64,000 nt of DNA from Dictyostelium discoideum (taxonomy: Eukaryota). Location of the stretch: positions 288,001 through 352,000 of the forward strand of contig CM000152.2 of assembly GCA_000004695.1 (NCBI GenBank), in the 5' to 3' direction. Numbering within the stretch: position 1 is the first letter of the stretch; every line of letters starts with the position of its first letter. This document shows, in pieces, positions 1-15,514 of this stretch. The notes beneath the pieces are model-generated. The model ran no database searches. It was not told the origin of the DNA and saw only the letters and a program-made list of their open reading frames with translations. The position numbers were made by a program, and so were the translations under genes.

Positions 1-364
1 CTCTTGGATATAAACCTGTAATTGCTGGTGTTGTAATTGAATTCTTATCAAAAAATGGTACAAATGTTTTATGTTTATTATCTAATTATTTTTTAAATAA
101 TATTTATATATATTAATAATTATCAATTCAATTACAAAAAAAAGAAAAAAAAAAAAAATACATACATAAATCGAAATATTTTGATGATGTATTTGGTGAG
201 TCTTCAACTTTTTCAATTGGATCTGTGTTATATGGTAAATTATTATTTCTATTTTCAAAGTATGAGCAATATTGTCTTTTACCAATATTATTGGCTAATT
301 GTTTTGTGATATTTAATTTAGTTAATTGCTTTATCATTATTATTTTTATTGTGATGCGCTTCAA
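1..364 (-). CDS. 5' part of a hypothetical protein-coding gene that runs off the window start. Exon 1 is about 364..166 (MKRITIKIIMIKQLTKLNITKQLANNIGKRQYCSYFENRNNNLPYNTDPIEKVEDSPNTSSKYFDL). After a GTATGT intron, exon 2 is about 81..1 (..YNKHKTFVPFFDKNSITTPAITGLYPR..).
   Basis: Minus-strand ORF 128..364 begins at an ATG. A canonical GTATGT donor follows ..KYFDL at about 165. An AT-rich intron ends at a TAG acceptor near 83. The downstream frame stays open to position 1 with protein-like composition. No homolog recognised. Confidence 0.35.
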
Positions 365-614
365 GTGAGAGCTTTGAAAAAAAAAAAAAAAAAGAAAAAA
401 AATAAAAAAAAAAAAAGCAAAAAAAAAAAAAAAAATTGAGTTTTTTTTTTTTATTTTTTTTTTATTTTTTTTTTTTATTGATAAATTTGCGACATTCTTT
501 TTTATTATTTTCCATTAAATAATTTAATTTTATTTATTTTTAAAACGAATTTAGTATAAAAAAAAATAAAATAAAATAAGTAGACCACTCTAAAATACAC
601 AAAATGATATAAGG

Positions 615-645
<31 letters not shown>

Positions 646-910
646 TAAATTTAATTCATTTATTTTTTGATTTAAAATTTTTTATTAAAATATTTGCAAT
701 TTTGTAGTAAAAAAAAAAAAAAAAATAGTATAAAAATTAAAAAATAATAAAAAAAAGAATAAAAAAATAATAAAAATAGTTATTTTTTTATTCTTTTTTT
801 TATTATTTTTTAATTTTTATACTATTTTTTTTTTTTTTACTACAACATTGGTGAAAAGTAATTTTACGAGGCGCTGGTGAGTTGGTCGCCTTTTTTTTTT
901 ATTTATTTTT

Positions 911-3900
911 TTATACACACCCCGCTACTGAAACATAGTCTGGTAGTTTTCCCATTTGATTTTCAGATAGTGGTGTTTGTGGTGGTCTTGTTGGTGGAGG
1001 TGTTGAGGATGAAGATGCTTCTTGTTCTTCTGTTGTTAGAGTACGTTCTCCTCCACTAGGTAACCCTCTAAGAGTTTTCAAATCAGATCTGTATCTAATT
1101 TTTTTTAAACTTATCTGTACTCCATCCATTGCATTTGAAAGTTGATTTTTCATATGAACAACAGTTCTTTTATTTCTATTTATACGTATTATCAATGCAA
1201 AGCCTCCACAAAAAGCGATAAATCCAGCAATTGCCATAAATGGTATTAACCATTTCTTTCTTTCAAATATACTTTTATATTTATCACTATCACCATTATT
1301 ACAACCATCAAATATTTTTTTACCAGTATTGTTTCTATTATTTTCAGATGATTGGTTACCTAGATCACCTTTATTTGGATTTTCAATATAAATCATTAAA
1401 TAGTTACCACCACTTTCCATTAATTGTAACATTTGCATATTGTTGTTGTTGTTGCTCTTGTTGAGTATTATTTCCATTTAAAGGTTCAACAATGCATGAA
1501 ATAATCATTGAATTAATAAAAGTAGGATCTGAACATCTTCTTTTACCAATTGATATTTCAATAGTTTCATTATAAAATTCATTTCCAAAAATTGTGATAA
1601 TACCCCCAATTGATGAATTTGAAATCATTGTTGAGTTTAATACAATTGGTGGAATATGAAATTGTTATGTTTTTATTTTGTTTTTCACCATTGAATTTGA
1701 TTTGACAAATTTGATCAAATGGTCCAGCCAATTCAATATCACACGAAATGGAAGTATAGTTTTCAAATGAACAATTATATATTTGTTGATTAGAGAAGCA
1801 ATAAACACTTGTATTATCACATGTGTTTGGAATAAAGTTTTCACCATTAATTATTATTTGACCGTCTGTGGAATTGAAAACTGGATAGTTGTTTATTTGA
1901 GTAAGTGTTGGTGATATATTAACTTTAAAACCTGTTGATGTATCATCGCATACGATTAAAGAAAGTTCACTTGATCCATATTCTGGTTTTAATGGGAAAA
2001 AAAAGAAGTTACTTTCAAATTTTATTTTCTTATTTGGGATATCATCAAATACTATCCCATTTGAAAATTGGATTTTAACTTTACCATTTTCATAGTAGTT
2101 AACATTGTTGGCATAATGGCCCGAACAACGAATCATTTGATCACTACTAATTGAACAGCTTGTAACATTTGGTAATTTGTAAAAAAGTTCAGTACGTGTA
2201 GTTTGATTTCCAATTGAAATTGAAATAAGATTCCTTCCACAACGCTTTGGAATTGGGAATGAGTACGTATGTGTTGAATACTCATTTGAATTTGAATTAT
2301 CAATACCTTGAATAGTTGTGTTATACATAAATGTAAGAATTGGTACACTAGAATGATTTAAAATATTAACATTATATAATTTAAAGTTTACAATTTGACC
2401 AAGTACTGATGGTGATGATGGTGATAATTTAACAAAGAATGATGAATCAATTTAGATTACATTTGATTTTTTACCATTTACAATTATATATAACTTTGAA
2501 TTTTTTATTTGATTTAATGGTGTAAATGATAGAGTTGTTTGTTTATCATTTATATTGGTTGTTAAATTTAATTGTTGGATATCATCAATATAGACTTGAG
2601 TTGATTCATTTGAACCTAAACAATCACCAATTAATTTAACATCTCCTTGAGGTAGAATAAAACCAGAAATAAAAGGTACATCAAATGAAAACAATAAAAT
2701 ATTATCATTAGCAATACCGTCTATTGAAACATTAACTCGTAAACCAGTTGAATCATTAATAGCACCAATTTGAACAGGATCTAAATTACATGTTATTTCA
2801 TTTATAGAAGAAATAACATTTTTGCATTGATGGTTACCAATTTTAACGATTATCAATGAATTGATTTTTTCAGATGATAATCTTTCTCCAGATAACAATT
2901 GTTATCTAACCACCTTTTGACTTTGGAATACTATTTATCTTTAAAAGAAAAGATCGGAAATCAAATTTGATTTTATTTGATTCTAAACCGACTGAAATAA
3001 TATTTACATAAATTGATTTACAATATTGTGAGGAGTATCTTAATTGAAAGAATTCATGATCAATTGAAAATAAAATTTTTTTATCAACTCGAACACCATC
3101 AATAAAGATATTGGCATCGGTTGAATTACAAAAATTTGAACCAATTGCAACCAATGAAGAATTATCACTAGAAATTTTATCAATGATTGGACTCGTGTGA
3201 TTAAACGAATACTTGAAGCCATTTGACCATTCAAATGTTATTTCGCCGCAACCACCTTTATAATCAAGAAATAAATTAGTTGCATCAAATGATTCATCAC
3301 CAATGTTGCCGACAAAAAAAACTTTTGTATTTGGAATTATAGTCAAATAAGTTGAAATTTAAAGAAGTAAGTAATATCCTTTGATTATAGAGCGACCACC
3401 TTTTGTTGAAGGTTTAAAATCACCTTGAATTAATGGAACTGGAAAATCCTTTGTAATATTTGTTGCTACACCACATGCATTAGAACCATCTACATCCATT
3501 ATTATTGATGATATCACAGCCCCATGAAATTTTTTTGGCAATTTCTTCATCTATATCTGCTGTACATGTTCTTATTCTGCTACCATTTTCACAAGTAAAT
3601 GGTAAAACATATTTTATATCAGGAAAATAAAAGCTTGAAAAAAATAAACCATTTGTTGGAGGTTTAAAATCACCTTGAATTAATGGAACTGGAAAATCCT
3701 TTGTAATATTTGTTGCTACACCACATGCATCAGAACCATCTACATCCATTAAACATGATGTCACACCACCATGTAATTTTTTGCAATTACTTCATCCATA
3801 TCAGCAGTGCATGTTCTTATTCTGCTACTATTTTCATAAGTAAATGGTAAAACATATTTTAAATCAGTAAAAGAAAAGCTTGAAAAAAAAACCATTTATG

Positions 3901-4092
3901 TCATATGTATAAACCAATGATTTATTTGTACCCTGAATACTTATAGAAATATTAAAATTAAAAGTGTTAAATTATTGCTATGATTTTTTAATTTTTAAAA
4001 TTTATAAATAATTACCAATAGGATGAGGAATATAAATCCCATCAATTTTTGAAATTAAAAAAACAAATAAAAATAAAAATAAAACTTTCATA
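911..4092 (-). pseudogene. Fragmented locus for a large secreted or type I membrane glycoprotein, probably a pseudogene. It has a signal peptide (MKVLFLFLFVFLISKIDG), an N-glycosylation-rich ectodomain of more than 800 residues with internally repeated segments, one transmembrane helix (GFIAFCGGFALII) and a Ser/Pro-rich cytoplasmic tail.
   Basis: The start ATG is near 4092, followed by a hydrophobic signal peptide and a GTAATT intron. The body is covered by six overlapping ORF-track pieces: 3480..3764, 3359..3550, 2906..3346, 2452..2898, 1579..2328 and 911..1477. Consecutive pieces are separated by in-frame TAA codons at about 2452-2454 and 3359-3361. They are also separated by +1/-1 frame changes near 2898-2908, 1600-1628 and 1445-1477. 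None of these breaks is spanned by a credible AT-rich intron. Many NxS/T sequons. The C-terminal piece has a transmembrane segment and a basic stop-transfer sequence (RINRNKR). Confidence 0.45.
3380..3900. repeat. Direct tandem duplication of about 260 bp, two copies. It lies inside the fragmented glycoprotein locus and duplicates a coding segment (..DVDGS[DN]ACGVATNITKDFPVPLIQGDFKP..).
   Basis: Positions 3401..3478 are nearly identical to 3661..3733. Positions 3575..3655 match 3822..3900. The two overlapping minus ORFs 3359..3550 and 3480..3764 translate to near-identical peptides. Confidence 0.7.
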
Positions 4093-4759
4093 TTGTAAAA
4101 ATGTATAGATTGTGTAGTTTTAATATACAATATGTCGGCAAATAAAAATAATTAAAATAAAAAAAAAAAAAAAAAAAAAAAAACATATATATATAAGAAT
4201 AAATTTTTTTATTTTTTTTAATTGTTTGGACACACTTTCCCACACAAAAAAGTTTTTCTTTTTTTGATTTTCCATTATTATTGCCAAGCCATAAAAAATT
4301 TAATATTGGTGATGTTAAAAAAACACATCACACACTTTCAAATATAAAAAAAAATAAAATAGAAATCGAATTTTAAATCTCAATTATTTGAAAAAAAAAA
4401 AAAAAAAAAATTAAATTAAATTAAATTATAACCTGATTTCCATATATTTTTTTTATTTTTTATTAAAAAAAATGCATTATTGAAGTTTTATTATTTAACC
4501 TTGTGGTTGGGCGAAACAATTTTTTAAAAATTCATAGATATGGTGATATGGTTGTTTTTTTTGTTTAATTTTGTTTTTATTTTTATTTTTTTTGGGAATG
4601 TAATATTAAAGTATTTAAATAAAAGATTTTTTAAAATTCAAATAATAATTTTAAATATTATAAAATAAAAAAGATAATTAATTTAATTAATAATAAGTGT
4701 TGTTTTTTTTTTTATTTAATTTTTTGGATTGTAAAATTAAAAAGGTAAACTCTATTAAT

Positions 4760-5419
4760 TTATTGATCTGGATTTAATAATTTTTGAACTTTTTGGTAAT
4801 ACTGAATAATTTGAGAAAAATAAAGAAAGAAAGGATTAGTATTTTTTAAAAAATAAGACGATTTTTTTTTTTTTTTTTTTTTGTTTTTTTTTTTTGGTAA
4901 TCAAAAAATTTAAAACTTACTACTCTTAATTCTTTGACTGTAATGGTACCATCTTTATTTGTATCCATTTCAGTTAAAATAAAATTGGCACTCTTTTCTG
5001 GATCTTTAGCACCAGTTTCTTTGAATCCTTGAATTAATTCATCTTTAGTAATATCAGTATTATCATCTTTGTTATGTCTTAAAATGAATGCTTCAATATC
5101 TTCTTCAACTTCAGCTTCTTGTTGTTTAGATTTTGCTTGTTTTTCTTTATATTCTTTAAGAGCTTTATCGAAATCGATCTAAAAAATAAAAATAAAAAAA
5201 ATTAATTAATTTATTATTATTTTATTTTATTTTAATTTATTTTATTATTTTAATATTTACATCACCAGCTAATTCTTTAATTGTAATTTTACCATCATTA
5301 TCCTTATCATAAACTTGGAATAAATAAATTGCACTTCTTTCTGGGTTGAAGGCCTCTATTTTTTTTTTTTTTTTTTTTATTATAAAAATAATTTATTTAA
5401 ATATGTGTGTGAGATTAAT

Positions 5420-5464
<45 letters not shown>

Positions 5465-5617
5465 TAATTTTTAATTAAAGAATAATAAAACTAATTCCAT
5501 ACTCTTTCCTTTGAAATATTCAACAGCTTCAGCTTTTGTGATTTCACCATCTTTGTTGGTATCATAGGTATCCAACATTTTTTGAACTTCTTCAACAATA
5601 TTTTGGGTGCTTGCCAT
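4760..5617 (-). CDS. cafA: EF-hand Ca2+-binding protein, calfumirin-1-like, about 168 aa, four exons. The spliced product is MASTQNIVEEVQKMLDTYDTNKDGEITKAEAVEYFKGK / KAFNPERSAIYLFQVYDKDNDGKITIKELAGD / IDFDKALKEYKEKQAKSKQQEAEVEEDIEAFILRHNKDDNTDITKDELIQGFKETGAKDPEKSANFILTEMDTNKDGTITVKELRV / YYQKVQKLLNPDQ.
   Basis: Three canonical EF-hand loops are present (DTNKDGEIT, DKDNDGKIT, DTNKDGTIT). Exons are about 5617..5503, 5354..5260, 5179..4921 and 4801..4760. Introns have GTATGG, GTAAAT and GTAAGT donors and TAG/CAG acceptors. Intron 1 holds a poly(T) run of about 63 nt. The symbol is assigned from remembered similarity to Dictyostelium calfumirin-1 and was not verified. Confidence 0.7.
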
Positions 5618-5972
5618 TTTTTTTTTTTTTTTTAAAAATAAGAATATGTGTATTATAACTAATGATTTGGAAAAAATGATTTTTTTTACTTAAATATTAT
5701 TTTTTAACAACAAAAAAAAAATAATTAAAAAAAAAAAAAAAAAAAAATAATTGAAAAAAAATTATTTTAATAATCAAAAGAAAACATCTTTATTTTCAAA
5801 TTACAAAATTAAATTTTTACCTTTTTTTTTTTTTTTTTCTTTTTACCAATTTCAAGAAAAAAAATAAAAAAAAAAAAATTGATGAAAATATCCAAATCTT
5901 AAGATATAACCCCCTTTTTTTTAATAATAAAAATAATAAAAAAAATTAATAAAAATCATTGTTATCAAATTT

Positions 5973-6006
<34 letters not shown>

Positions 6007-6307
6007 CAAATAAAATTAAATCTTGCGAATATACTCTTTATTTAATAATGGTCTTCAAATAAAATAAAATAAAATACTAATCTTTTTTATTTTTTTTTTA
6101 AAGATATTTCTCTTGCTTTTTAGATTTTTTTTTTTTTTTTTTTTTTTTTTAATTATAAATAATAGTTGGTAAATAATTTCTATAGATCAGGATTGATTTT
6201 GTGTTCATTCTACTTGTATTATTATTTATTATTATTTATTATTATTTATTATTATTATTTATTATTGTATTTTATGGTTGTATGTGAGGTAAATATTTTT
6301 AAAATGA

Positions 6308-6864
6308 TTAATCATCATCCTCAATTGTTCTTCTTTTCATTGTAATTGTTGTTTTTTTTGTTTTTTCACTTAATTGTTCCAATAATGAGATAAGTTTAGC
6401 ATCATCAACTCTCTCTGTTAATTGACCAGTTTGTGCTGCCCTTATTATTAAATCCTCAATTTGACGTGATTTCTCTGGTTTGACAATTGTAATTCTTGAT
6501 ACTTTTTTTTTTTTTTTTTTATTTTTAGTTGAATGAAAAATTAGAATCAAAGTAATCTAAAAATAGCCAATAATAAAAATAATAATAATAATAATAATAA
6601 TAATAATCAAAAAAATAATAAACGTACATCTTTCTCTAGCATCTGGTGTCAAAATTTGAATTAAGATACCTTGTCTTCTTTCATTTGCTTCTTGTCTTTG
6701 AGCCTCTTGTCTTTGTTGGGCTTCGGGCTATTTAAATGTTTTTTTAAATTAGATTATTTTTTTATTTTTTTTTTTCTAAATATTTTATTTTCTCTCCTAC
6801 ATACATCAAAACCTTGACCTTGCATTTGTGATAATTGTTGTTGAATTTCTTTTTCGCTGCTCAT
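6308..6864 (-). CDS. Programmed cell death protein 5 (PDCD5/TFAR19) homolog, about 117 aa, three exons. The spliced product is MSSEKEIQQQLSQMQGQGFD / PEAQQRQEAQRQEANERRQGILIQILTPDARER / LSRITIVKPEKSRQIEDLIIRAAQTGQLTERVDDAKLISLLEQLSEKTKKTTITMKRRTIEDDD.
   Basis: The C-terminal exon (ORF 6308..6550) carries the PDCD5 signature LSxxxxVKPEK..Y/IxxA..GQL..KV.E..L..LL..........KxxRR....D(D/E)DD. Upstream exons were found by GTATGT and GTACGT donors and AG acceptors at about 6864..6805 and 6731..6631. Confidence 0.75.
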
Positions 6865-7248
6865 TTTTTTTTTTTTTTTTTGTTTTGTATATCTGTTTTG
6901 ATGGGGTCCAAATTTATAAAAATAAAAAAAAAAAAAGAAAAAAAAAAAAAAAATTATTTTCATTTTTTTTTTTTTTTTCATTTTATTTTACATTTTATTT
7001 TTTATTTTTAGAATTTAATTATTTACCACCATTCATTTTTTGTAATTGTTTTTTTTATTTTGGGGAACTTCAAGAGGGAATATATTTTTAATATAAAAAA
7101 AAAAAAAAAAAAAAAATTAAAAAAAAAAAAATTAAAAAAAAAAAATTAAAAAAAAAAAAAAATAATCTAGATTTAATTTTTAAAAAATTTAAAAATATAT
7201 ATATAAATTATTAACTATTAATTATTAATTAAATTTTAATTTATTTAT

Positions 7249-7926
7249 TTAATTTGTTTTTTTAATATTTGTAGTTGAACCTTTTTTATGAGAAGCAATA
7301 AACTTCTTTCTTTGACCTAACATATAAGTGTAAAGATATGGTAAACCAATAACGTAGAAACCTAAAGAGAAAATTAAAATATTATGGAAGTCGAATGCGA
7401 AATTCAAAGAATTTGGCATTGTCAATGTCATAAATTTAGTGTTCTTGACGAATTCCAAACTTGTCCAAATTGTACCAGTTTCACCAGTGACACCGGTTGG
7501 ATAGAGTATGATGAAAGTTGTGTATCTTAACCAACCCAAAATGTAAGAATCGATCTTTAGAATTGAAAGTGCGTAAAAACTATAACGAATTACTTCTGTA
7601 ATTGACCATGACATTAACATCAATGAAAGGAAGAAATGGTTTTGAGTGGTTGGTACGTTTTGTGCCAAGAATACACATGCAACACGTGAAAATACTTGAA
7701 TAAATGTTGTAGCTGCTGATGTCTTTACTAAACCAAATACTGAATGAACAATCTCCAATACTGCTGCATATTGAAAAATTGATACTAACGCTCCAACTTT
7801 TTCCCAAACTCCAACTGGTGATTGAGTTTCAAATAAATGAATACTTAATTTAAATAATATAATACTCCATCCAATTGTTTGTATAACATTATATAATACT
7901 AAATATAAATTTTTAATTGATACCAT
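7249..7926 (-). CDS. Very-long-chain (3R)-3-hydroxyacyl-CoA dehydratase, PTPLA/HACD/Phs1 family. Single exon, 225 aa.
   Basis: Intact ORF with a multi-pass membrane profile. The characteristic PTPLA blocks are present (YLVLYN..GW, ..FQYAAVLEIVHS..GLV.S...T..QV.SR, ..YP.GV.GE). It ends in a basic tail (RKKF..HKK) that resembles an ER-retention motif. Confidence 0.85.
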   Translation of the reverse strand: MVSIKNLYLVLYNVIQTIGWSIILFKLSIHLFETQSPVGVWEKVGALVSIFQYAAVLEIVHSVFGLVKTSAATTFIQVFSRVACVFLAQNVPTTQNHFFLSLMLMSWSITEVIRYSFYALSILKIDSYILGWLRYTTFIILYPTGVTGETGTIWTSLEFVKNTKFMTLTMPNSLNFAFDFHNILIFSLGFYVIGLPYLYTYMLGQRKKFIASHKKGSTTNIKKTN

Positions 7927-8601
7927 TTTATTTTTTTTGTCAATTATTTAAAATAAAACAATGTTTTTATTTTTTTTTTTTGGGTGAATGAACGATCAAA
8001 AAAAAAAATAAAAAAAATAAAAAATTTTAAAAAAAAAAAATAAAAAATAAAAAATTTTTAAAAAAAAAAAAAAAAATCTAAAAAAAAATAAATTAAAATT
8101 AATTACAAATAAAAATTATTATTATTAGTAAAAAAAAAAAAAATATACAATATATTATTTTTTGATTATAAAAAAAAAATAATAATAATAATTTTTTAAC
8201 CTTATTTTATTAAATTTGTAATCTGTTTTTTAAAAATAAATAAAAAAAACACACTCCTTTTTTGATATCTAATCGTATTTTAATTAAAAAAAAAAAAAAA
8301 AAAAAAAAATTATGACGACTCAAATAAAAAGTTTTTATCAAGGTGTTTTTTTTAAAAATCCCAACTATTTTTCATTTTGTCATTTATTTCCAATTAAAGA
8401 AAATCATAAAACCATATTTTTAATTTTTTTTTTTTTTTTTTTAATTTTATTTTAAATAATTTTAAAAAAAAAAAAAAAAAAAAAATAGTTGGGAGTACAT
8501 TTAAATAAAATTTTTTTTTTTTTTTTTTTTGTATTTCTATTTTCACAAAAAAACAAAACACTTTTGTGCTTTAACAAAAAAAAAAAAAAAAAAAAGGAAA
8601 T
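7927..8601. promoter_or_regulatory. Divergent AT-rich intergenic region between the start codons of the HACD gene (minus) and the TMEM53-like gene (plus). Putative bidirectional promoter.
   Basis: 675 bp of more than 90% A+T with long homopolymer runs. The two start codons face away from each other. No TATA or initiator element could be mapped confidently. Confidence 0.3.
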
Positions 8602-9542
8602 ATGGGTGCCCAAAAATTACCAATATTAGAATATCTTCAAGCAGAAAATGATTCACCATTACCATATGAAGGTGAAGATAGACCATTGGTAGTAGTTTTA
8701 GGTTGGATGGGATGTCGTCGTGAACATTTATTAAAATATGTTGACCAATGGAGAAAACGTGGTTTCAATACATTTTCATTTTGTTCAAAACCAATTCAAT
8801 TGTATTGTATCATTATTTTAAAATAATTTGTAAATATTAAATAAATACTAACCCTTCCCCCTTCCCCCTTCCCCCTTCCCCCTTCCCCCTTCCCCCCTTT
8901 TTTTTATTTTTTTTTTTTAAAATATTTAGATTGGTTCCAGGAGTAATTCAAAATAAAGGTGATGAAATGTTAGAACAAATTAAAAAATATTTAAAAGAGA
9001 ATAGAAATTGTAAAAGTGTAATATTTAATGCATTTTCAAATGGTGGTGGATTTTATTATGCACATATGATTCGTCAAATTCATGAAAGAGAGGATTGCAA
9101 GTGGATGGCTCCTTTGGTAAAGGGAACTGTGTTGGATTCGTTGCCTGCAATTAGACCATTATCCATCTATTCAGCATTCCGTTTAACTAGTCCAAATATG
9201 TTTGTAACTTTCTTATTAGCATTGGTAGTACCATTATTTGTAGTTTTATTTTGGAGTAAGATGTCATCGTATCAACAAATTTTAACCTCAAAAAAGAATC
9301 AATGGCAACATTTAATTTTCTATTCAAAAGCTGATACTATAGTTCATTCTGATGATATCGATAATTTAGTTGGTAAAATAAAGAATAATTTATCAGATGT
9401 CAATCATCTAGATTATAAATGTTTCGACGATTCACCACATGTTCTCCATATGAGATCACATCCAAAAATATATGAAGATAAATTAAATCATTTCGTTACT
9501 TCAATTAAAAATTCAAATTTGAAAAAATTACAAAATAAATAA
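8602..9542 (+). CDS. TMEM53/DUF829-family membrane protein, two exons of about 8602..8801 and 8930..9542.
   Basis: Exon 1 encodes MGAQKLPILEYLQAENDSPLPYEGEDRPLVVVLGWMGCRREHLLKYVDQWRKRGFNT.., which matches the PLV(I/V)LLGW.G....L.KY TMEM53 motif. A GTATTG donor lies at about 8802 and a TAG acceptor at about 8929. Exon 2 continues in frame to the TAA at 9542. Confidence 0.7.
8855..8907. repeat. (CCCCCTT)n heptanucleotide microsatellite, about six units, inside the TMEM53-like intron.
   Basis: A C5T2 repeat is read directly from the sequence. The complementary strand is (AAGGGGG)n. Confidence 0.8.
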
Positions 9543-9892
9543 ATAAAAAAAAAAAGTGTATAATTACAATAAAAACAGAATTCTATTTTTTTTTCTATTT
9601 AAAGATTTTTTATTTATTTTTATTTAATTTTCCCCCTTTTTTTTTTTTTTTTTTTTTTAATTTTTTTAATTTTTTTAATTTTTTTTTTACTTTTTTTTAT
9701 AATTTTTTTTTTTTTTTTATTTTATTTTATTTTTTTTTGTTGTTGATGTCATTGCACAAAAAAAAAAAAAATATCTTTTAAAAAAACTAAAAAAAAAAAA
9801 ATATTAAATAAATCACAAAATTAATAGAGGTTATGTCAATTGATATTTTATAATAATATTAACAATAATAACATTAAACTATACATATTACA

Positions 9893-14229
<4,337 letters not shown>

Positions 14230-14307
14230 CTATTTGGTTGACATCATCATAAAAATAAAAAAAAACACACTTTATACATATAGATTACAACTTGTAATTC
14301 ATATTTT

Positions 14308-15514
14308 TTAAATGAATAATTTATTTAACCAATTTTTATATTTTTTTAATTTACCGCTATTTACACTTTTTTTTATATTATTTTTTTTTGCTATATATGG
14401 AATATTTAAATAACCAGATTTTAATATATCATCCTCTATTAGTGAATCTTTTTTTTCTTTTACAACCATTTTAAAAGTTTCATCATTAAAATTTTTTAAA
14501 ATAATTTTTGAACCTTGTTTGTGATCAAACACTATTGAATGTTTCATTATTCTATTATTATCAATAGTTTCTCTATATCTATGAGTAAAAATGGAAATAA
14601 ATGAACGAACCATATTTGATTTATCTTGTTTATTATTATTATTATTATTATCCTTCTTTTTTATAAATTCTTTAAATTCTTCATTTTTTAATGATCTAAC
14701 AACTCCAATATCACCATCTTTAATTTTATCAAATTTGAATCTGTCAAATATTTCTATTTTAGAGTTTGATAATTATAATTATAATAATAATAATTAAATT
14801 TTAGTAAATATAATTTTAAAATATTAACAAAAAAAAAAAAAAGAAATAGGGATAATAATTACTAATTGATGTTTTTCCTTTAAATTTGGCCATAGTAACA
14901 CAATTAATGTTTGGGCCATTTGATTGACTAATTTCAACATTTTTAAATTTGTTTGTTGAATTATTTGATTTCTTTTTTATATAATAAAATTCCTATTTTT
15001 AATTTAAATATTTAAAATTTTAGTATTAATAAAAAAAGAAAAAAAAAAGAAAAAAAATAATGTTTTATAAATATAATAATTTAAAAAATGAACTTACAAA
15101 TGGAATATCATCTAAATTACAAATTGTTAAATATTCAGCTCTATATAAAGCTCTATTTTTATCAACTTCATTGGAATAAGGATATTCATAATGAAAAAAT
15201 TTAGAATTTGTGAGATATTTATCAACTAGTATTGTTGAAATAAAAAATACATAAAACCCTATAACTATAAAAAGAAAAAAAAAAAAAATACATTAATAAA
15301 AATCCAATTAAATTCAAATTTATAATAAAAAATAAAAAATTAAATAAAAAATTTGAAATTTACTTGATAATAAAACAAAAACTAATACATAATGTGCTAT
15401 AACTTCTATCTTTCTTGAAACTCTATTTTCTTCTTCCTCCTCTGGCGTTAATGGTGGTAAATTTGGTGGTGCAAAATAATTTGTTTGAAATCCGACTCTT
15501 ACCTCTTCATCCAT
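14308..15514 (-). CDS. Hypothetical protein of about 265 aa with two predicted transmembrane helices, four exons. The N-terminus is MDEEVRVGFQTNYFAPPNLPPLTPEEEEENRVSRKIEVIAHYVLVFVLLS / IIGFYVFFISTILVDKYLTNSKFFHYEYPYSNEVDKNRALYRAEYLTICNLDDIPF / EFYYIKKKSNN.. / KIFDRFKFDKIKDGDIGVV..NWLNKLFI.
   Basis: ORF-track pieces 15320..15514 and 14308..14613 are joined through exons at about 15264..15098 and 14992..14878. Donors are GTAAAT, GTAAGT and GTAATT, acceptors are TAG. The two adjacent hydrophobic segments loosely resemble PIG-P-type small membrane proteins, but no homology is secure. Confidence 0.45.

Follow-up and report, generated by a model that had tools for sequence, protein, structure and literature searches.

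Within the 64,000-nucleotide (nt) stretch of Dictyostelium discoideum DNA analyzed here (the window; assembly GCA_000004695.1, contig CM000152.2, positions 288,001 to 352,000), the minus strand of positions 911-4091 carries one colinear remnant of a gene of the Tgr ('tiger') family of single-pass surface glycoproteins, recognized from its open reading frame (ORF) pieces and their translation. Sequence comparisons make us confident that an unprocessed pseudogene lies here, resembling the tgrA group most closely and still at its original site downstream of cafA. Intron 1, the promoter region, and the syntenic position are all retained, that is, the locus is no retrocopy. Exon 2 survives as eight colinear ORF pieces (3761-3895, 3480-3764, 3359-3550, 2906-3346, 2452-2898, 1579-2328, 1404-1628, and 911-1477), which, joined to exon 1, gave a repaired translation that matched a Tgr protein over 100% of its length (E = 0, 81% identity). 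The original prediction, made from the sequence alone, that colinear ORF pieces at this site belong to a single gene is thus borne out. The gene parts follow one another in the order signal peptide, Ig_TgrO1 and IPT/TIG domains, transmembrane helix, and tail:

4016 to 4091, minus strand: exon 1, with the ATG at 4091-4089, signal peptide MKVLFLFLFVFLISKIDGIYIPHPI, and a phase 1 end (G) before the donor GTAAT; from reading of the sequence.
3947 to 4015, minus strand: intron 1, ~69 nt, ~92% A+T.
911 to 3946, minus strand: remains of exon 2, comprising the ectodomain, transmembrane helix, cytoplasmic tail, and original TAA stop (913-911); from three-frame translation, Pfam, and alignments.
1187 to 1252, minus strand: predicted transmembrane helix WLIPFMAIAGFIAFCGGFALII, from inspection of the translation, followed by the basic RINRNKR and the cytoplasmic tail.

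The first break in the reading frame, at 4015-3947, is not a lesion but the intron that normally follows the signal peptide in this family; only its acceptor AG is gone. Exon 1 could be aligned to exon 1 of related gene copies in other assemblies (copies 1 and 4 of L002, and L003, described below), and its peptide agreed with the N-termini of the public proteins P0012 and P0001. By inspection, the signal peptide MKVLFLFLFVFLISKIDG at 4091-4038 recurred as the same segment in P0001 and P0005, and the predicted transmembrane segment likewise aligned with the same segment in these two proteins.

Family membership was established from the repaired translation. Pfam detected Ig_TgrO1 (PF24612) in two stretches (E = 3.8e-25; score 88 bits, cut-off 27.9) and TIG (PF01833) also in two stretches (E = 1.6e-6; score 28.4 bits, cut-off 20.9), and strands of the GGxITIxGxxF type were visible at ~2912-2880 and ~1606-1575. 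All homologues of the repaired translation (32 of 32) came from Dictyostelium, the top one being 81% identical at 100% query coverage. Together with syntenic intact counterparts in two assemblies and lesions specific to one lineage, these results uphold the earlier suggestion that a member of a surface-protein family specific to this lineage has decayed here.

The intact counterparts came from the syntenic site in other lineages. Gene order (cafA, tgr, hexapeptide-repeat gene) was kept in L001 (a separate assembly, GCA_054883475.1, and the source of the top match, P0003), in L002 (GCA_054859355.1), and in L005 (D. cf. discoideum). The L004 stretch (GCA_054859385.1) stops short of the hexapeptide-repeat gene, leaving only cafA followed by tgr visible, and the window itself covers only ~355 nt of that gene, ending inside it. 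The number of tgr copies in the syntenic interval, all on the same strand, was one in the window and L001, two in L005, three in L004, and four in L002. The arrays occupy the following intervals:

L002, 3452 to 15817: four same-strand copies between the same flanks, the last with an uninterrupted exon 2 of 940 codons.
L004, 11929 to 20509: three copies after cafA, the last with 942 open codons.
L005, 11778 to 18207: two copies, both broken, at positions other than those of the window copy.

The genome of L005 also contains a related copy outside the syntenic site, termed L003, which had frameshifts of its own. The single-copy DNA flanking the locus (window positions 4610-13765) was only ~88-94% identical to L004 (isolate ACTFIR) and L002 (isolate ACTFIW), both of which are labelled D. 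discoideum, with many indels. Given that the divergence quoted among D. discoideum strains is roughly 0.3%, a value far exceeded here, the ACTFIR and ACTFIW isolates represent distant lineages. Several of the upstream copies in L002 and L004 were themselves diverged and truncated past residue ~640 (their ORFs span 569-683 codons and lack any match to the transmembrane and tail region), and copies 2 and 3 of L002 were also frameshifted.

Pairwise and five-way alignments to these other copies placed eleven lesions in the window copy, ten of them disabling and all private to the window lineage. They comprise the lost acceptor AG, six frameshifting indels (-2, -1, +1, +4, -2, and -2), three stops, and one tandem duplication. 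In the order in which the gene is read, with L002 copy 1, which has the closest intact-type 5' end, serving as reference for the acceptor, these are as follows:

Between 3947 and 3946, minus strand: deletion of the acceptor AG of intron 1 (window ATATTT--CTATAAG versus ATATTTAGCTATTAG in L002 copy 1).
3883 to 3890 (~3889), minus strand: 2-base-pair (bp) deletion, AATGGTT--TTTTTTT, where the other copies and duplication unit B have TA or CA; frame 2 to 1.
3777 to 3782, minus strand: 1-bp deletion in an A-run, six A versus seven in other copies; frame 1 to 2.
3655 to 3897, minus strand: duplication unit A, 243 nt.
3405 to 3654, minus strand: duplication unit B, 250 nt.
3537 to 3538, minus strand: 1-bp insertion of an extra C (ATTGCCAAAAAAA) in unit B; frame 2 to 1.
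3359 to 3361, minus strand: in-frame TAA, for GGA (Gly) in L002 copy 4, the last copy of L004, and L003; two substitutions.
2906 to 2908, minus strand: in-frame TAG, for TTA (Leu) in all four other alleles; adjacent double substitution TA>AG.
2893 to 2896, minus strand: 4-bp insertion GTTA, a +1 frameshift; frame 1 to 0.
2452 to 2454, minus strand: in-frame TAA, for CAA (Gln) in L002 copy 4, the last copy of L004, and L003, and for GAA in L005 copy 2; one substitution.
1653 to 1654, minus strand: 2-bp deletion, TCATAT--TCCACC versus TCATATT[C/A]TCCACC; frame 0 to 2.
1412 to 1413, minus strand: 2-bp deletion in AAGAG, giving AATGGAA--AGTGG; frame 2 to 1.

The mapped indels wholly explain the walk of the reading frame from 2 through 1, 2, 1, 0, and 2 to 1. 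Five of the six frameshifting indels are of the slippage type, in short repeats or homopolymer runs, the inserted GTTA being the sole exception. At the acceptor, the next AG downstream (3941-3940) would give an out-of-frame junction. Because every frame read from the ATG meets a stop within ~45 codons of exon 2, the sequence indicates that no Tgr protein can be made from the locus.

Much of this damage had been noticed beforehand. Several frameshifts had been called, of which six are now mapped as indels, and both in-frame TAA codons that had been reported are real, each splitting a pair of pieces that share a frame as described: 3359-3550 and 2906-3346 lie in frame 1 on either side of the TAA at 3361-3359, and 2452-2898 and the 5' extension of 1579-2328 lie in frame 0 on either side of the TAA at 2454-2452. 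The third in-frame stop, the TAG at 2908-2906, had been overlooked. The search for intact relatives that had been proposed recovered copy 4 of L002 and the last copy of L004, and alignment to them allowed the eleven lesions to be placed.

The internal duplication, likewise noted before, resolved into tandem units A (3897-3655) and B (3654-3405), in whose alignment 224 positions match, 19 differ, and 7 are gap columns. With an ancestral unit of 246 bp, or 82 codons, the duplication was in frame. The unit boundaries fall at a near-repeat, AAATGGT and AAAAGGT (microhomology), and the copies in L002, L003, and L004 all have a single unit only. An A+T-rich C-terminal stretch (~915-892), which appeared as an insertion relative to L002 copy 4, was considered as a further lesion and rejected; L003 and L005 copy 2 share the arrangement of the window, and therefore the deletion lies in L002 and L004.

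Over 2,291 aligned columns, the window lineage carried 87 private substitutions versus 11 and 17 in the two intact alleles. With eleven lesions, this number of private substitutions, and duplicated units that already differ at 19 sites, the decay can be called recent only in a relative sense.

The window copy is also a mosaic. In 150-nt comparison windows, the region 4290-3391 (promoter, exon 1, intron, and duplicated N-terminal region) was 83-94% identical to copies 1-2 of L002 versus 72-88% to copies 3-4, and the region 2340-841 had counterparts only in L002 copy 4 and L003. A 5' part like the upstream copies and a 3' part like the last copy point to unequal recombination within the array, from which we infer that the single surviving copy arose. 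The site would ancestrally have held a same-strand tandem array of tgr genes, of which two to four copies are seen in related lineages, with the last sometimes intact. In the window lineage, unequal recombination would have reduced this array to one copy, which would then have gathered lesions under relaxed selection: loss of the acceptor, six small frameshifting indels, three nonsense codons, and, between AAATGGT and AAAAGGT as microhomologies, the tandem duplication of 82 codons. The polarity may also have been the opposite, with the arrays having grown from a single copy.

The mosaic structure also bears on an alternative that is compatible with a pseudogene, namely that the copy, though no longer coding for protein, is retained either because functional tgr genes draw sequence from it by conversion or recombination or because it yields a regulatory transcript. 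Duplicates and pseudogenes of tgr have been proposed to recombine into expressed loci (PMC12745789; bioRxiv 10.1101/2025.10.22.684067), and the window copy is itself a mosaic. Yet the comparisons gave no sign of donation from it, it is the sole tgr sequence in the 64-kb window, its nearest paralogues in strain AX4 share 51-56% protein identity, which is low for conversion, and its private substitutions and lesions resemble neutral decay. We therefore consider retention as a reservoir or regulatory transcript improbable.

The other explanation that had been raised, an intact gene into which faults of consensus calling or assembly have introduced the stops and frameshifts, is scarcely credible. 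The extreme A+T richness of the sequence, its many homopolymers, and the placement of four of the six frameshifts in error-prone short runs or repeats would all invite such errors. However, the separate assembly GCA_054883475.1, of a kind built de novo from Nanopore plus Illumina data (PMC12745789), is identical to the window at each base of 911-4092, though it differs elsewhere: over window positions 1-13765 the identity is 99.76%, with 52 differing alignment columns, none of which falls in 911-4092. Errors specific to one assembly are therefore excluded. Both assemblies possibly derive from one laboratory lineage, so that their agreement excludes errors and not strain specificity. Moreover, three nonsense substitutions, two of them needing two base changes, and a 246-bp duplication with 19 differences between its units are not changes of the error type. 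Outside the gene, the differences between the two assemblies were mostly in the lengths of homopolymer, microsatellite, or TTA-type runs (5453-5463, 6147-6150, 8308-8309, 8529-8530, and 13307-13315), for which true polymorphism and assembly noise are both possible, and there was a cluster of intergenic substitutions at 5835-5841.

Equally little credence can be given to a functional gene that gets past its lesions, be it through unconventional short introns of the sort drawn in the public model ACTFIT_009899 (P0003) or through programmed readthrough or frameshifting. Automatic annotation did produce an 830-amino-acid (aa) protein at the locus by jumping each lesion. When P0003 was mapped onto the window, however, the skipped stretches measured 28-155 nt and were 56-75% A+T, versus 92% A+T in the real intron, and they encode conserved residues that are coding in the intact alleles, such as GGRSIIKGYYLLL, NGKKSNVIxIDSSFFVKLSPSSPSV, and one entire strand region. 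The model also begins at an internal Met, without the signal peptide, and retains the duplicated segment. The neighboring cafA ends normally at a TAA, and no recoding signal is shared by the eleven lesions, which are of five kinds. There is no need to invoke splicing across the TAA sites, which is implausible. Recoding or an alternative genetic code was rejected as well, since TAA ends both cafA and the pseudogene's own ORF and the lesions are heterogeneous.

More generally, the public models at these tgr arrays (L001 10001-12839, L002 10001-15817, L003 10001-12941, and L004 11929-20509) are artefacts. They have introns invented over frameshifts, as in P0003 (830 aa, ACTFIT_009899) and P0005 (911 aa, ACTFIY_005201), or are fusions of two or three adjacent copies, as in P0001 (1626 aa, ACTFIW_003146) and a 2238-aa model in L004.

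With an unprocessed pseudogene as the preferred explanation, we turn to its place within the family. Its closest AX4 proteins were only 51-56% identical. Two of these matches, P0011 (1087 aa) and P0015 (846 aa), correspond to the coding sequence lengths listed for tgrA3 and tgrA1 and lie on a contig of the size of chromosome 6; a third protein, P0010 (1038 aa), has the length of tgrO4 but lies on a chromosome-6-sized contig as well. From these matches, the locus appears to be tgrA-like. The protein collection held no AX4 protein from the locus itself, though it did contain AX4 calfumirin-1 from the neighboring gene.

Several features tie the locus to the tgrA/H/I/O group of AX4. It has the same set of elements (signal peptide, short intron, Ig_TgrO1, IPT/TIG, transmembrane helix, and tail), and its homologues, as for the tgr family at large, are confined to Dictyostelium. 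The tgrA cluster is an unpaired, same-strand tandem arrangement (bioRxiv 10.1101/2025.10.22.684067), as is the syntenic site of the locus in other strains. Death in one lineage with survival of an intact gene elsewhere is reported for many tgr pseudogenes, and some AX4 pseudogene loci have intact versions in other strains (bioRxiv 10.1101/2025.10.22.684067); the locus behaves alike. Genes of the tgrA/H/I/O group have been found to duplicate and move at transposon-like rates (PMC12745789). The locus conforms to this published picture in each respect tested. In the literature, most tgr genes of AX4 have low or undetectable expression. As for differences, the locus adjoins cafA, outside the chromosome-6 cluster that contains its nearest AX4 proteins, P0011 and P0015, to which it has only the low identity given above.

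A second system with similar properties is the tgrB1/tgrC1 allorecognition locus, a hypermutable hotspot (PMC12745789), where copy-number change, chimeric copies, pseudogenes, and strong divergence between strains occur at one site, as they do here. The two differ in locus and subfamily, the copies here lack head-to-head pairing and a shared promoter, and proteins of the tgrA/H/I/O group, unlike tgrB1/tgrC1, have no known role in allorecognition.

Three points weigh against parts of this assignment. First, placement with tgrA is based on the length and chromosome of the AX4 matches and not on phylogeny. Second, AX4 has 26 reported tgr pseudogenes, and the locus is presumably one of those already annotated. 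Third, a test for relaxed constraint by codon position and by nonsynonymous versus synonymous changes was uninformative, the substitutions being spread almost evenly over codon positions and the ratio being ~2:1 on all branches, intact alleles included. As all branches are alike in this respect, the substitution patterns show no separate relaxation in the window lineage. The locus is, in kind, an already known case, an ordinary instance of tgr birth-and-death turnover.

One of the breaks had been associated with a perfect 16-bp palindrome. This palindrome, GATAACAATTGTTATC at 2891-2906, does exist, but it is really part of an 18-bp one and was made by the lesions, so that it is no independent feature:

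2890 to 2907, no strand assigned: perfect 18-bp palindrome AGATAACAATTGTTATCT, extending the 16-mer GATAACAATTGTTATC at 2891-2906.

Copy 2 of L005 reads GGTTTAATAACAATTTCTGGAG at this place, the inferred ancestral state, which is also found, with small differences, in four other copies. The window reads GGTTAGATAACAATTGTTATCTGGAG, which departs from the L005 sequence solely by the TA>AG change and the inserted GTTA. By this alignment, the palindrome is the product of the substitution that made the TAG stop and of the insertion that shifted the frame, and not the cause of the break; it coincides with the break because the lesions made it. Its presence as a significant signal in its own right was rejected: the window contains 26 perfect 16-bp palindromes, shuffled sequences gave 0.33 18-mers with at least four G/C per window (at least one in 29% of shuffles), and palindromes are found in the intact alleles too.

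The form of the two changes is suggestive of how they may have arisen. GTTA is the exact reverse complement of TAAC (2904-2901), which lies 4 nt upstream across the AATT center, and is not a tandem copy of adjacent bases, and AG is the reverse complement of CT on the opposite arm. In hairpin or template-switch (quasi-palindrome) mutagenesis, GTTA would have been copied inverted from the opposite arm, and TA>AG would have extended the complementarity. Quasi-palindrome and short template-switch mutations are described in E. coli, yeast, and primates (PMC7202029, PMC8604942, PMC8794818), where clusters of changes perfect two arms and inverted-copy insertions and adjacent double substitutions occur; the same signs are combined here within 18 bp. 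Three observations count against such an origin. No imperfect inverted repeat existed beforehand, since the ancestor TTAATAACAATTTCTGG pairs only at its AATT center; the changes lie on both arms, so that at least two template-switch events are required; and intact alleles also carry palindromes of 14-20 bp. Compared with the described quasi-palindrome systems, both arms changed here from an ancestor with little arm pairing, and the locus is known from sequence alone. We accordingly hold a hairpin-templated or template-switch origin of the palindrome to be a serious candidate, at somewhat less than even chances. The wider proposal, that the TAG and the +4 frameshift at 2890-2908 are template-switch footprints and that such changes, if frequent in tgr arrays, could drive hypermutability, diversification, and gene death, appears to us rather unlikely.

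Two other palindromes were seen in the gene. The first, a perfect 16-bp palindrome, AAATCAAATTTGATTT, lies at 2958-2973, 50 nt from the one above, and is due to a window-private synonymous T>C; its counterparts are AAATTAAATTTGATTT in the L002 copies and AATACAAATTTGATTT in L003, making this another arm-perfecting change. In the intact alleles, a perfect 20-bp palindrome, TTTACATTATATAATGTAAA, is located in the coding sequence for NFTLYNVN (L002 ~14306-14325, the last copy of L004, and L003) and is broken in the window (~2397-2378) by two substitutions. Its presence in intact alleles shows that long palindromes are general to the gene and therefore no mark of a lesion.

The locus has little significance beyond annotation. 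It adds one more site, from cafA to the hexapeptide-repeat gene, at which tgr arrays have expanded, collapsed, and died among closely related Dictyostelium lineages, and it agrees with the published birth-and-death picture of this family of recognition genes. The artefact public proteins drawn from the locus would mislead analyses of homology and orthology. The palindrome is a small hint of template-switch mutations in the D. discoideum genome; were multinucleotide changes templated by inverted repeats indeed frequent in the A+T-rich tgr arrays, they would offer one concrete mechanism for the reported hypermutability and rapid diversification of recognition genes, and for gene death.

The pseudogene lies on a 6.4-Mb chromosome-length contig, beside the gene used as the synteny anchor:

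4776 to 5622, minus strand: cafA (calfumirin-1, DDB_G0277827), four exons, 169 aa; upstream neighbor.

The spliced translation of cafA was an exact match in homology search to D. discoideum AX4 XP_642131.1 (UniProt P54670), and the gene is on the same strand, 685 bp upstream of the ATG of the pseudogene. No further tgr sequence was present in the window, and a tRNA scan across it found no tRNA genes. The G+C content per 2-kb block ranged from 16 to 36%, mostly near 22%, and introns were short and A+T-rich; with the exact cafA match, these features identify the window as nuclear DNA of D. discoideum. Ten large ORFs elsewhere in the window had either no Pfam family or housekeeping-type ones, namely TTI1, RCC1, RasGEF, VPS11, and a Na/Ca exchanger.

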